64,000 nucleotides of DNA. Origin: an uncultured Candidatus Rokubacteria bacterium (GTDB lineage Bacteria; Methylomirabilota; Methylomirabilia; Rokubacteriales; CSP1-6). The position numbers and the translations under genes were made by a program. Where the stretch lies: contig CAVXJS010000009.1 of NCBI GenBank assembly GCA_963762145.1, forward strand, positions 480,001 through 544,000. Reading direction: 5' to 3'. Below, piece after piece: positions 60,414 to 64,000 of the stretch (positions are counted from its first letter, which is position 1; each line of letters starts with the position of its first letter). A model generated the notes under the pieces. The model searched no databases and was not told the DNA's origin. It worked only from the letters and a program-made list of their open reading frames with translations.

Positions 60414-60888
60414 TCACCGCGGGAAGCCGAAGAGGGCCCGCGCGCCCAGCACGAGCACCAGCGCGTAGAAGCCCGCGATGAGATCATCCACCATCACGCC
60501 CAGGCCGCCGGTGAGGACCTGGCTCTCGCGGGCCGGGAACGGCTTCCAGATGTCGAAGAGCCGGAAGAGCAGGAACGCGGTGACGAGCACCGGGATGGTC
60601 GGCGGCAGGAGGATCACCGAGAGCAGCATGCCCGCGACCTCGTCGATCACGATGACCCCGGGGTCCTTCCGGCCGAGCGCGCGCTCCACCCGCGAGCCGG
60701 CCCAGATCCCGACGACGGTGACGACGATCAGCGCGACCAGGATGCGCAGCGGGGTGACCGGCAGGAGCCAGATCGCGACCACGGTGACGAAGCTGCCCAC
60801 GGTGCCCGACGCCACCGGGGCGTAGCCCGCGCCGAGCACGACTGGCCAGCACGGAAGGCCAGCCGGTCGAGCCGGCCCGAGCGGCTTA
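60414..60888 (-). CDS. pgpA: Phosphatidylglycerophosphatase A (5' indels)
   Basis: ASGTVGS, KDPG.IVIDEVAG, FRLFDIWKPFP, GG.GVMVDD. Confidence 0.9.
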
Positions 60889-62199
60889 GTCGCCGACGAG
60901 CTCGTAGCCCTCGACCTCGACGATGGCGACCTCGGCGAAGCGCCCCGGGGTGAGCGCGCGGTCGCGCAGCAGCACCACGCCGTCGATCTCGGGCGCCTGG
61001 CCGGCGGTCCGGCCCTCGAAGGGGAACGCGGGGTCCGCGCTCGGCCCGTCCACCAGCACCGTCTGGCGGGTGCCCGAAGAGCGCCTTCTGGCGGGGCCAC
61101 GCCAGGCGGTCCTGGAGGTCCTGCACCTGCTGGGCGCGCTCGGCCATGACCTCGGCCGGCACCTGATCCGGCATGTCGGCGGCCGGCGTCCCCTCCTCCA
61201 CCGAGTAGGTGAAGACCCCGAGCCGGTCGAAGGCCACGTCCTCCACGAAGCCGAGCAGATTGTGAAAGGCGGCCTCGGTCTCGCCCGGGAACCCCACGAG
61301 CACGGTGGTGCGAAGCGTGACGCCGGGGATCGCGTCCCGCAGCCGGGCGATGACGTCCAGCATGCGCCGCGCGGTGACGCCGCGGCGCATGGCGCGCAGG
61401 ATCCCGTCGTCGCCGTGCTGCACCGGCATGTCGAGGTACGGCACCACGCGCGCGCGCTGCCACTTGGCGACGAGGCGGTCGGTGACGTGCGCGGGGTGCA
61501 GGTACATCGGCCGGATCCACGGCATCGTGGTGTCGGAGAGCGCCAGCAGCAGGTCGCCGATGTCGCCGTTGCCTGGGAGCTCGCGGCCGTAGGCCAGCGT
61601 GTCCTGCGAGACCAGGATCGCTTCCTGGACCCCGCGGCGCGCGAGCCCGTTGACCTCGGCCACGATGTCGGCGAGCGGGCGGCTCCGGTGGCGCCCGCGG
61701 AACTGCGGGATCGCGCAGAACGTGCAACCCATGTCGCAGCCCTCGGCGATCTTCACGTAGGCGTAGGGCACGCGCCCGGTGAGCAGCCGCGGGGTCTGCG
61801 CGTCGTACAGGTAACCGGGCGGCGCCGCGCTCACCCACGCCTGCCGCCCGTCGGCCTGGTTCACGAGCTCCACGATGCGGTGCAGCTCCGAGGTCCCGAG
61901 GATCGCGTTGATCTCCGGGATCTCCGAGCGGATCTCGCCGCCGTACCGCTGGGTGAGGCAGCCCGTCACGATGAGCGACCGGGCCCGGCGCCGCGCTCCT
62001 TGAGCTGCGCCAGCTCGAGGATCGTGTTGACCGACTCCTCGCGCGCCCGGTCGATGAACGCGCAGGTGTTCACCACGAGGCACTCGGCGGTCTCCGCCGT
62101 CTCCACGATCTGATGCCCGGCCTCGGTCAGCATGCCCAGCATCAGCTCGGAGTCGACCTGGTTCTTGGGGCAGCCGAGGGTCGTGAAATGGACTTTCAT
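60886..62199 (-). CDS. rimO: Ribosomal protein S12 methylthiotransferase (frameshifts)
   Basis: LGCPKNQVDSE, NTCAFI, KIAEGCDMGCTFCAIP, VGFPGET, APEIDG. Confidence 0.95.
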
Positions 62200-62262
62200 G
62201 ACGGGGTGTTAATGATCCCACACCCTCTCCGGCGGCGTCAAACGTAGCCCTCGGAACCTTCC

Positions 62263-62291
62263 TTGACGTCACCCGGTTGAGTGGTTACCGT
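62263..62291 (+). promoter_or_regulatory. Putative sigma70 promoter giving a leaderless mRNA
   Basis: TTGACG-17 nt-TACCGT, with ATG 62299 only 7 nt downstream. Confidence 0.65.
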
Positions 62292-62298
62292 GTCGCGT

Positions 62299-62811
62299 AT
62301 GCTGCGGATCGATCGCATCTCCTTGGCGCTGCTGCTGTCGCTGGCCCTCCTGGCCATCGCCGGCCCGGCGGCGGCCCACGTGGCCTCGCCGGCAGCTTCC
62401 GCCCCGATCGTCCCGACGCCGGAGGCCCCCGCGCTGATCCCGACCCTGACCGCGGCCCCCGCCGCGCCCACGCTGTCCTGGTATCTGCCCGCGGCGCTGG
62501 TCCTCGTAGCCCTGATCGCCTGGCGCGGTCCGCGGCGGGTCATGATCGTGACGCTCGCCCTGCTCCTCTGTGTCTTCGCCTTCGAGGACGCGCTGCACTC
62601 GGTGCATCACGGCTTCGATCCGAAGCAGCAGGAGGCGTGCGCGGTGGCCGCGGCCACCGCCAATCTGACCGCCGTGCAGGCGGACGATCCCGGCCTGTCT
62701 TCCGTCGTGCTCCCCGTCGTCGGTCGGCCCACGACCGATCCGGCCGCGTCCGGCCCGACCCGCTTCCTCAGCCCCGACCAGGGGCGCGCTCCTCCCTCCG
62801 CGATCCTGTAG
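62299..62811 (+). CDS. Membrane/exported leader protein with His/Cys patch and C-terminal RAPP motif (DUF2946/CruR-like)
   Basis: Signal peptide ending AAA-H, two hydrophobic helices, HSVHH...CAVA, ends DQGRAPPSAIL*; lies upstream of tonB and a TonB-dependent receptor. Confidence 0.7.
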   Translation: MLRIDRISLALLLSLALLAIAGPAAAHVASPAASAPIVPTPEAPALIPTLTAAPAAPTLSWYLPAALVLVALIAWRGPRRVMIVTLALLLCVFAFEDALHSVHHGFDPKQQEACAVAAATANLTAVQADDPGLSSVVLPVVGRPTTDPAASGPTRFLSPDQGRAPPSAIL

Positions 62812-62913
62812 TCCCGCCGCGGTCTCCCGACGCCCCGCGCGCCTCGTGCGCCGTGGCCAGCGGGTGTCCCGGCTGTCGCGGCTCCAATCCTGGCCTTGCG
62901 GAGGGAAGCGTTC

Positions 62914-63678
62914 GTGCTCAACGAGCTGTCGTGGCGGCGTGCGATGCCGATCGGCCTGTCCTGCGTGCTGCACGTGGCGCTGGTCACCGGTCTCATCGTG
63001 GGTCAGCACTGGGTGACCAGCGTGGTGGCCGTTCAGCCGCCGGTCCTTCCCGTGCAGCTGGTCACGCTCGATGCCGACGAGCCACCGCGCGAAGTCGCGC
63101 CTCCGCCTCCGCCACGACGGGAGCGGACGGCCTCGGTCCGGCGATCGGAGCGGCCCCGGCCATCGGAGGTCGCCCCCGCGAGGGTCGAGGAGCCCGCGCC
63201 GCAGCCCGTCGCGCCGACGCCGGAGCCGGTGCGGGAGCCGACGGAGATCGCGCCCGCGACGGTGGCTACCCTGCCGGCCATCAGCGAGCCCGCGCCGGCG
63301 CCGGCCTCGTCGGCCCCCGCGTCCAGCAGTCCGACGGTCGCGCTGCCGGCATCGGCCCCCGTGGTGGCCGCGAAGCCCCCGACCGCGGCGCCCGAGGGCA
63401 TCACCCGCACCGCGCGGCCGCAGGGCGGATATCAGGTGCGGCCCACCTACCCGACCGCGCCGAGGCGGCTCGGCATCCAGGGCACGACGCTCCTGCGCGT
63501 GCACGTGCTGGCGGACGGACGCATCGGCGACGTGCTCGTCGAGAGCTCGGCCGGCCACCCGGATCTCGACGAGGCCGCCATCGGGGCCGTCCGGGGCTGG
63601 CGCTTCGATCCGGCACGCCGGGGCAACGAGCCGGTGGCCATGTGGGTGCTGCTCCCCGTCGAATTCCGACTCAGGTGA
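62914..63678 (+). CDS. tonB: Energy transducer TonB
   Basis: TM helix SCVLH (SxxxH), Pro-rich linker, P.YP..ARR.GIQG, WRFDPA, PVEFRL; GGAGGG RBS and GTG start. Confidence 0.9.
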   Translation: MLNELSWRRAMPIGLSCVLHVALVTGLIVGQHWVTSVVAVQPPVLPVQLVTLDADEPPREVAPPPPPRRERTASVRRSERPRPSEVAPARVEEPAPQPVAPTPEPVREPTEIAPATVATLPAISEPAPAPASSAPASSSPTVALPASAPVVAAKPPTAAPEGITRTARPQGGYQVRPTYPTAPRRLGIQGTTLLRVHVLADGRIGDVLVESSAGHPDLDEAAIGAVRGWRFDPARRGNEPVAMWVLLPVEFRLR

Positions 63679-63691
63679 GGAGCCCTGGCTC

Positions 63692-64000
63692 ATGACCCGA
63701 CCCTCGCGTCTGCCGTTCCTCGCCGTCCGTCGCCGTCCTCCTCACCGCGGGCGCCGTCGGCGCGCAGGCCCCGCCCGCGCCGCCCATCCTCGAGCCGGTG
63801 GTCGTCGAGTCGAGCACCCTGCCGCCCGAGCGCACCCGCACCGAGGAGCAGGCGCGCGAGGAGATCGACCGCACCCCCGGCGGCGTCGCGATCGTCCCGC
63901 AGAAGGCCATCGAGGAGTCGCGCGGCGCCAACCTCAAGGACGTGCTCGACTTCGTGCCCGGCGTGCTGATCCGACCGCGCTTCGGCGCCGCCGACGAGAG
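63692..64000 (+). CDS. TonB-dependent receptor, N-terminal part (truncated by window edge; likely indel in signal peptide)
   Basis: GAGGAG RBS; TonB box LEPVVV; plug domain RTPGGVAIV...LKDVLDFVPGVLIRPRFG. Confidence 0.85.
   Translation, partial: MTRPSRLPFLAVRRRPPHRGRRRRAGPARAAHPRAGGRRVEHPAARAHPHRGAGARGDRPHPRRRRDRPAEGHRGVARRQPQGRARLRARRADPTALRRRRRE

Follow-up and report, generated by a model that had tools for sequence, protein, structure and literature searches.

A RAPP-terminated leader ahead of tonB in Rokubacteria, a candidate copper-sensing arrest peptide

A small leader open reading frame (ORF) precedes tonB near the end of a 64,000-nt stretch of DNA (hereafter, the window) from an uncultured Candidatus Rokubacteria bacterium (contig CAVXJS010000009.1, positions 480,001 to 544,000 of the forward strand). 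A sequence-only reading, made without database searches, had proposed that the encoded protein arrests the ribosome at a C-terminal RAPP motif as part of a metal sensor, and that the arrest codons can sequester the ribosome-binding site of tonB. The features of the locus, with positions in the window, are listed below (SD, Shine-Dalgarno sequence; TM, transmembrane; AF2, AlphaFold 2).

62252–62291, + strand: promoter region, with GGAACC at 62252–62257, a −35 element TTGACG at 62263–62268, a 17-nt spacer and a −10 element TACCGT at 62286–62291
62299–62811, + strand: leader ORF of 170 amino acids, candidate copper-sensing arrest peptide, with ATG start and stop codon TAG at 62809–62811
62299–62379, + strand: residues 1–26, putative signal peptide ending in A-A-A, and His27; predicted cleavage, AxA-H pattern visible in alignments
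62479–62589, + strand: TM hairpin from alignment and AF2, with TM1 (about residues 61–75), Arg-rich loop WRGPRR and TM2 (about residues 81–97)
62596–62640, + strand: predicted periplasmic metal-ligand patch, from conservation, comprising H100-S-V-H103-H104 (62596–62610) and Cys114 (62638–62640)
62641–62784, + strand: spacer, residues 115–162, fixed in length and variable in sequence, with the last part (R155 to G162) conserved
62785–62796, + strand: RAPP arrest motif, codons 163–166 (CGC GCT CCT CCC)
62787–62803, + strand: anti-SD arm of the stem, within the stretch presumably covered by a ribosome that stalls when Pro165 occupies the P site
62812–62913, + strand: leader-tonB intergenic region, 102 nt (42 C, 36 G, 17 T, 7 A), with internal hairpins
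62896–62910, + strand: SD arm of the stem, with the SD core GGAGGG at 62900–62905, 8 nt before GTG 62914
62914–63678, + strand: tonB, 254 amino acids, GTG start (TonB_C, E = 4e-20; TIGR01352, E = 2e-18)
63692–64000, + strand: 5′ end of a TonB-dependent receptor gene with a Plug domain, continuing past the window

Translation of the window ORF gives a protein with the C-terminus ...RFLSPDQGRAPPSAIL (GRAPPSAIL*). The ORF, the coordinates of the stem, the SD and the GTG start at 62914 were all found on the sequence as first described. From its N-terminus the leader consists of a hydrophobic start ending in AAA|H, a Pro/Ala-rich linker, two hydrophobic segments, HSVHH, Cys114, RAPP and the tail SAIL. 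An AF2 model of the leader (mean predicted local distance difference test score, pLDDT, 65; predicted template modelling score, pTM, 0.30) was used for helix positions only. Its helix at residues 2–25 corresponds to the signal-peptide segment. This hydrophobic helix and the conserved AxA-H site suggest, in a predictor-free reading, a Sec signal peptide, with His27 as the predicted first residue of the mature protein; A26 and H27 are each conserved at 90% or more in a 40-sequence alignment (A2). Helices 62–76 and 78–104 cover the TM hairpin region, whose loop has the consensus rpRr with R79 conserved at 90% or more among the 40 sequences. The positive-inside rule is general background to such a topology. 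The alignment and AF2 thus both agree with the architecture proposed earlier, a signal peptide and two TM helices. Residues 126–158 are free to vary in sequence at constant length and have no secondary structure in AF2, with pLDDT below 50 for residues 126–144. Matches of Pfam and NCBIfam models to the leader (TctB, DUF5993, DUF4131, MmdD) were all sub-threshold and TM-like and were set aside as noise.

The distance from the −10 element to the leader ATG is 7 nt. A strict promoter scan listed no site on the + strand. In 59 distinct upstream regions of leader homologues, TTGA[CG] was found at −36 ± 1 in 52, TAnnnT at −13 in 47 and GGAAC at −46/−47, 10 nt upstream of the −35 element, in 42. The leader starts with ATG in 56 of these regions, and an SD-like tetramer is present at −20 to −4 in only three. 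From the 17-nt spacing of the hexamers and the 7 nt between −10 and ATG, the transcript should start at the ATG or one base earlier. Promoter geometry therefore supports a leaderless leader mRNA, as had been claimed. At 62252–62282 of the window GGAACC is followed 16 nt later by GGTT, and this arrangement is conserved; presumably it resembles a promoter of the extracytoplasmic function (ECF) sigma type (GGAAC-N16-GTT) that overlaps the sigma-70-like promoter.

The identity of the two downstream genes was borne out. TonB_C matched the 254-residue protein with 72.5 bits against a cut-off of 24.6 bits, its N-terminus contains LSCVLHV (a TM segment with the S..H motif), its middle is Pro-rich, and the protein start VLNELSW... 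is conserved among homologues. On the 67-aa receptor piece inside the window the Plug match fell under the Pfam cut-off (E = 4.8e-4, 21.0 versus 23.9 bits), and on the longer receptor frame past the window it reached E = 1.2e-18. Most homologous loci have the same order: leader, about 100 nt, tonB and receptor Plug. At an intact homologous locus (genome G145) one strand encodes the leader, TonB, a receptor with Plug and barrel, a BNR-like protein, a CopC with His as its mature N-terminus, and a 191-aa protein with a terminal CxxCH; convergent to this operon is a cupredoxin gene. This part of G145 (L101, 7667–12438), which is syntenic with L001, 5863–9337, contains the 191-aa protein and, on the other strand, an unassigned 526-aa protein, the cupredoxin, a fasciclin-domain protein and a LolA-like protein. 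Other family members head CopC (L016, L065), PCuAC (L075) or a receptor directly (L020, L023, L025). Because members head tonB-receptor-CopC, CopC or PCuAC operons, copper is favoured on gene context as the sensed metal over Ni, Co or Zn, the metals that had been guessed at. At the loci examined no sec or yidC genes lie downstream of the leader; tonB, the TonB-dependent receptor and CopC are found there instead.

The leader, stem and tonB are intact in the window. An independent DNA contig (X1) spans 62200–63998 with a single gap, at 63726, and the rows listed for it, beyond which there were 134 more, contain no difference in the stem. One base is absent at 63726 in DNA contigs from two other studies (X1 and X5) and at 63725 in X17 and X15, so the window seems to carry a 1-base insertion near 63725/63726. 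In 63692–63800 the receptor signal peptide (ATG 63692) and Plug lie in different frames, and dropping the extra base at 63726 removes the frameshift in the signal peptide. Upstream, a radical-SAM/TRAM gene (60728–62199, − strand) is broken in two, with 77 N-terminal residues in one frame and the remainder in another; its G145 homologue is intact. In L001, 2149–5535 (window 63648–67034), there are three or more frame changes in the receptor gene and one in the BNR-like gene. These frame breaks suggest an indel-rich assembly and not pseudogenes. Parts of the leader, of the intergenic region and of tonB are represented in contigs from RNA libraries (X17, X15; relatives of 90–99% identity); one X17 contig skips 62811–62890. 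Such contigs, which give no transcript ends, strand or level and may contain carried-over DNA, were not counted as evidence of expression.

A leader family of Methylomirabilota

A word-indexed search returned 273 homologous proteins with source names of Methylomirabilota/Rokuibacteriota. This supports a host in that phylum, outside the Proteobacteria, as the sequence-only reading had supposed. Whole genomes of the phylum contained a leader match in 97 of 251 cases (a tally that includes the unpublished G076). Among 120 listed close homologues 118 end in RAPP plus one to six residues; the two exceptions are one RDPP and one truncated sequence. With a profile of 40 diverse members 815 representative clusters (50% identity) were found at E ≤ 1e-3 and 639 at E ≤ 1e-10; hardly any of them match a Pfam model. 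H100, H103, H104, C114, R163, A164, P165 and P166 are invariant in all 40 aligned sequences.

The 150 best of the 815 representatives were taken as a sample. Here RAPP was present in 140 and RGPP in four, most of the remaining six being fragments, and the tail that follows is one to eight residues long, with a mode of four. The spacing from the Cys to the Arg is 47–49 residues in all 138 scored representatives and exactly 48 in 112. An HxxHH-type motif was found in 143 of the 150, and the Cys is invariant in alignment A3. The conservation of RAPP, the His/Cys patch and their spacing thus extends across a large family, in support of the sequence-only reading.

Since PDQGRAPP was among the search patterns of the metagenome scan, loci L032–L078 are biased toward the motif, and conservation was judged from the genome and cluster sets. 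Among 76 loci the script did not find a C-terminal RAPP in four: L011 and L049 hold the RAPP-coding string in broken frames, L053 ends at a contig end, and L047 has no match. In L011 (G160:C31) the leader homologue is broken in TM1 by an AT-rich segment of about 80 nt within GC-rich surroundings, and the RAPP-coding end and tonB are intact downstream of this interruption.

In many relatives one contig bears at least two paralogous leaders no more than a few kb apart, in convergent, divergent or tandem orientation (G161:C31, G158:C58, G155:C45, G159:C32, G176:C54, G178:C103, G164:C6 and G163:C7). This suggests that each of several operons in one gene cluster is controlled by a paralogous leader of its own.

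In the source genome itself, frames that end in R[AG]PP plus at most eight residues are rare: only four of 6,058 coding-like frames do so. Three further frames of this genome end in RAPP plus two residues, at C11:273491 (−), C10:308330 (+) and C14:105636 (+). The first encodes 132 aa ending in ...SRAPPFA* and is followed by a 75-nt spacer whose start, tcccctccgt, is complementary to acggagg, the SD of a gene encoding a secreted protein of 476 aa; this frame may represent another leader built along these lines.

Predicted pairing of the arrest codons with the tonB Shine-Dalgarno sequence

The sequence at 62793–62803, TCCCTCCGCGA, is the reverse complement of 62896–62906, TTGCGGAGGGA, with one G-U pair, and past a 2-nt bulge (62791–62792) CGCT at 62787–62790 pairs with AGCG at 62907–62910. 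The minimum free energy (MFE) fold of 62760–62930 includes this stem (−81.4 kcal/mol, z-score −2.24; 5 of 200 shuffles equally stable), and the stem dominates the structures predicted for the window and its clade. A terminator scan found no intrinsic terminator in the 102-nt intergenic region, the length of which is kept at about 82–118 nt in most homologous loci. A 5-bp hairpin (GCCCC/GGGGC, 62771–62785) formed by the S-P-D-Q-G codons just 5′ of RAPP appears in folds of the window's clade, and several other clades have a different version of 6 to 10 bp just before RAPP.

When all equal-length windows of the leader ORF were compared as partners of the SD, the RAPP window was the best of 156 at −28.5 kcal/mol, the next reaching −21.1. 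The same test was applied to the window's clade (identity ≥57%), with about 156 windows of the same ORF per locus (91–156). The RAPP window ranked first in 22 of 25 loci. Loci with a failed or doubtful start (L007, L010, L021, L024–L027, L029, L072, L074 and L078) were excluded, among them L007, a clade member whose start was not assigned. Cognate RAPP-SD pairs were more stable than non-cognate ones (−20.2 versus −18.5 kcal/mol; permutation p = 0.015; 17 dereplicated loci, those with an intergenic region above 140 nt being left out).

Codon usage was also examined. Wherever the residue is retained (20–22 of 22 clade members), codons 166–170 are free of synonymous changes; in the rest of the leader ORF most codons for Ala, Pro, Gly, Leu and Ser differ synonymously between members. 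The first Pro codon of RAPP is CCT in 52 of 73 leaders, as against 5% of other Pro codons.

In family representatives, the ensemble probability of pairing between the SD and the RAPP/tail window is at least 0.66 in 16 of 24 and 1.00 in the window; the partner sequences vary between clades. Predicted SD masking is thus strong in the window's clade and extends to these 16 representatives, but some branches of the family lack masking by the RAPP codons. We conclude that SD masking is likely at the window locus and is not universal across the family.

Proposed mechanism and its alternatives

We consider it reasonably likely that the leader ORF serves regulation in the manner of CruR and CutF (DUF2946-like), and that what matters is chiefly its translation and not the finished protein. 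The leader would be translated from a leaderless mRNA and inserted co-translationally, its signal peptide would be cut to make His27 the N-terminus, and the TM hairpin would set H100-x-x-H103-H104 and Cys114 at the periplasmic face. The ribosome would stall at RAPP, codons 163–166, at which point the fixed 48-residue spacer would fill the exit tunnel and translocon, with the metal-ligand patch just emerged. Bacterial ribosomes are generally known to cover a stretch of mRNA on both sides of the decoded codon, and the stalled ribosome would cover 62787–62803, which on the free mRNA is predicted to pair with the tonB SD region at 62896–62910. The SD would thereby be exposed and tonB translated, and expression of the receptor and CopC may follow the opening of tonB. 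Binding of a metal, most likely copper, to the emerged patch would fold or pull the nascent chain and free the stall; the stem would then re-form and the uptake operon would be turned down, as for CruR.

A wider proposal is offered tentatively, with clearly less confidence. The leaders would form a phylum-wide, Pfam-invisible family (at least 815 clusters) of membrane-anchored nascent-chain copper sensors, characterized by an N-terminal His reminiscent of a histidine brace together with HxxHH-C, a TM hairpin that sets the chain in the translocon, arrest codons (CCU CCC plus tail) that serve as anti-SD, and paralogues that gate TonB-receptor, CopC and PCuAC operons. If the proposal is true, the stall site and the riboswitch arm would be one 17-nt element on a leaderless mRNA, and a post-transcriptional copper regulon would exist in Methylomirabilota, the methane-oxidising branch included.

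Several results weigh against the reading of the ORF as a CruR/CutF-like leader. The first group concerns homology and the metal. The DUF2946 model (PF11162) gave no match to the leader protein at E ≤ 1 and none on the leader in a six-frame search of the genome at E ≤ 10, and it matched only 1 of the 150 family representatives at E ≤ 0.01, missing 149. The best NCBIfam match of the receptor is PqqU-like and far under its cut-off, with no copper-receptor model listed; with no copper-receptor signature, the copper assignment is drawn from neighbour genes only. The AF2 model of the leader, with its mean pLDDT of 65, is weak.

The second group concerns the stem. Within the window's clade none of the 15 pairs shows compensatory changes, and stem covariation scores were matched by shuffles in 407–500 of 500 trials. 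The covariation that the sequence-only reading would predict is thus not seen, and conservation of the stem could stem from protein and SD constraints alone. Pairing between SD and RAPP is not predicted in 5 of the 24 representatives (P ≤ 0.06) and is partial in three (0.26–0.50); in a large 'APAA' clade the RAPP window ranks only 32–64 of 156. With the ribosome footprint masked, the probability that the SD is unpaired is only 0.23 in the window and 0.03–0.42 overall, so that the predicted SD switch by a stalled ribosome is partial. Pairing with a GGAGG-type SD comes nearly automatically with Pro-Pro codons. No clear link was found between the CCT bias and pairing, and since CCT/CCA also occur in other RAPP leaders, the bias may mirror the stall and not the stem.

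Two matches of PF11162 elsewhere in the genome, C5:34322–34510 (E = 0.27) and C9:208390–208575 (E = 4.6), were rejected as low-complexity translations in a wrong frame. A link between the leader and DUF2946 runs through L081, a short protein from Methylomirabilota with a PF11162 score above the cut-off (25.0 versus 23.7 bits). The one hydrophobic segment of L081 lies at the N-terminus, and HSVHH, C-x7-H and RAPP come after it. In hhalign the family profile A2 matched L081 over residues 75–166 with a probability of 98% (E = 1.4e-13). All clusters returned by a protein language-model search were unnamed and from Methylomirabilota; among named Atlas clusters DUF2946 came closest (score 0.82), which we treat as a lead only. 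The family has no CXXC or CxxxC copper motif: one Cys (C114) is invariant, with Ala at the position of the second. Judged by these alignments, the C-terminal half of the leader is a remote DUF2946 relative, connected through L081 and not by a direct match, and we read the family as a divergent, N-terminally extended relative of CruR/CutF. Compared with DUF2946 it has gained a signal peptide, probably cleaved, with a His behind it, as well as a linker and an extra TM segment, and HxxHH plus one Cys stand in for the Cys pair.

The same metal-sensing arrest peptide could instead have a transcriptional output, which we regard as unlikely though worth weighing first. A stalled ribosome would block Rho loading on the 102-nt intergenic RNA, release of the stall would let Rho terminate before tonB, and the stem would arise incidentally where Pro-Pro codons face a GGAGG-type SD. 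CruR is reported to operate through Rho (PMC9426467), and the retained intergenic length of about 82–118 nt in most loci, the lack of an intrinsic terminator there, the lack of stem covariation within the clade and the absence of RAPP-SD pairing from some branches would all suit such a mechanism. However, the intergenic region is G-rich for Rho loading (36 G versus 42 C in 102 nt) and predicted to be heavily structured. The position of the RAPP window as best SD partner in most of the clade and the advantage of cognate over non-cognate pairs also speak against this reading. The two outputs, Rho termination and SD masking, are not mutually exclusive.

It is improbable that the leader is a working membrane protein, for instance one that binds copper as a partner or chaperone in the TonB-receptor-CopC system, and in which RAPP would have a structural or targeting role and no regulatory stall would occur. 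Its size above that of typical leaders, the TM hairpin, and an N-terminal His and HxxHH-C patch like the metal sites of periplasmic proteins such as CopC would fit a protein of this kind. Yet residues 126–158, being fixed in length, variable in sequence and without AF2 secondary structure, argue for a ruler and not a fold; RAPP always lies one to eight residues from the stop; a C-terminal R[AG]PP is rare in the source genome; and proteomes are reported to avoid RAPP except in arrest peptides (PMC12992588).

Sensing of Ni, Co or Zn, or of Sec/YidC insertion capacity as for SecM, MifM and ApdA, is likewise improbable. In its favour, the patch is His-rich with a single Cys, His-only CutF-like clusters are reported to neighbour HupE/UreJ (Ni/Co) genes (PMC9973294) and the receptor has no copper-receptor signature, but family members head CopC, PCuAC and receptor-plus-CopC operons, a cupredoxin gene adjoins the operon, and no Sec or YidC genes follow the leader.

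Comparison with known arrest leaders

Copper-sensing arrest leaders that have been studied are two, CruR and CutF, both from Proteobacteria and both defined via the DUF2946 model. If the CruR/CutF-like reading of the present leader is right, the same logic operates in a family missed by Pfam, in a phylum known almost only from metagenomes, so that Pfam-based surveys would undercount the class. The 48-residue ruler, the invariant His/Cys set and the arrest-codon stem make a compact system with clear testable mutations. It could show how metal binding outside the membrane becomes force on the ribosome, and it may explain the regulation of copper supply in uncultured soil Methylomirabilota.

A literature search found nothing on 'HSVHH' and nothing that ties DUF2946, CutF or CruR to Rokubacteria or Methylomirabilota; the supplements of PMC9426467, PMC9973294 and PMC12992588 lay outside this search and may list the family. 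A survey of RAPP/RGPP leaders describes them across phyla upstream of TonB-dependent receptors, YcnI, PCuAC, PepSY and copper genes (PMC12992588); its main text names neither the present family nor Methylomirabilota/Rokubacteria, and its supplements may list the family.

What the sequence-only reading had said of RAPP arrest and CruR agrees with the CruR and CutF papers. In CruR of Bordetella pertussis (Bp2923), RAPP lies three residues from the C-terminus, its distance of 45 residues to CXXC is conserved within one or two residues, and RAPP mutants lose expression (PMC9426467). The signature published for CruR is a conserved ligand patch kept at a set distance from the RAPP near the C-terminus. 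Like CruR, the present leader is a small, putatively exported protein that heads an operon with a TonB-dependent transporter, it carries RAPP a few residues before the stop and a metal motif at a fixed distance from it (45 residues in CruR, 48 here), and the proposed logic is the same: copper would release the stall and turn uptake down. Unlike CruR, it has HxxHH-x9-C in place of CXXC, an added N-terminal His, Pro/Ala linker and TM hairpin, a family missed by PF11162, tonB as the first downstream gene and a host of a different phylum. The output differs as well, Rho termination in CruR and predicted SD masking here.

SD masking recalls CutF of Rhodobacter capsulatus (cutFOG). This copper sensor acts as a nascent, exported chain, and its stalling at the C-terminus is reported to open an mRNA stem that shields the SD of the next gene (PMC9973294; 10.1101/2025.02.05.636593). 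CutF, however, has CxxxC and an EF-P-dependent PPP motif, and copper induces its stall and turns on a detoxifying oxidase, whereas the present operon looks like an uptake system; in addition, the anti-SD here would be the arrest and tail codons themselves. In SecM-secA, too, a stall near the end of an exported leader frees the stem-held SD of the next gene (10.1101/2025.02.05.636593), but SecM monitors export, has another arrest sequence and bears no metal ligands.

ApdA, ApdP, ApcA and a Streptomyces lividans set (for example the four-TM SLIV_18480) resemble the leader in being small secreted or membrane proteins that carry RAPP at the C-terminus and are encoded upstream of regulated genes, and some RAPP/RGPP arrest peptides of that set lie upstream of metal genes and have TM segments and conserved His (PMC12992588). 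Arrest peptides of the Sec/YidC class monitor protein export, unlike the role proposed for the present leader.

The class to which the leader appears to belong is thus already known from CruR (PMC9426467), CutF (PMC9973294; 10.1101/2025.02.05.636593) and the RAPP/RGPP survey (PMC12992588). What the present locus adds to it is a Pfam-invisible branch with a different ligand set, a predicted membrane anchor, tonB as the first target, a putative anti-SD made of arrest codons and a probably leaderless transcript.

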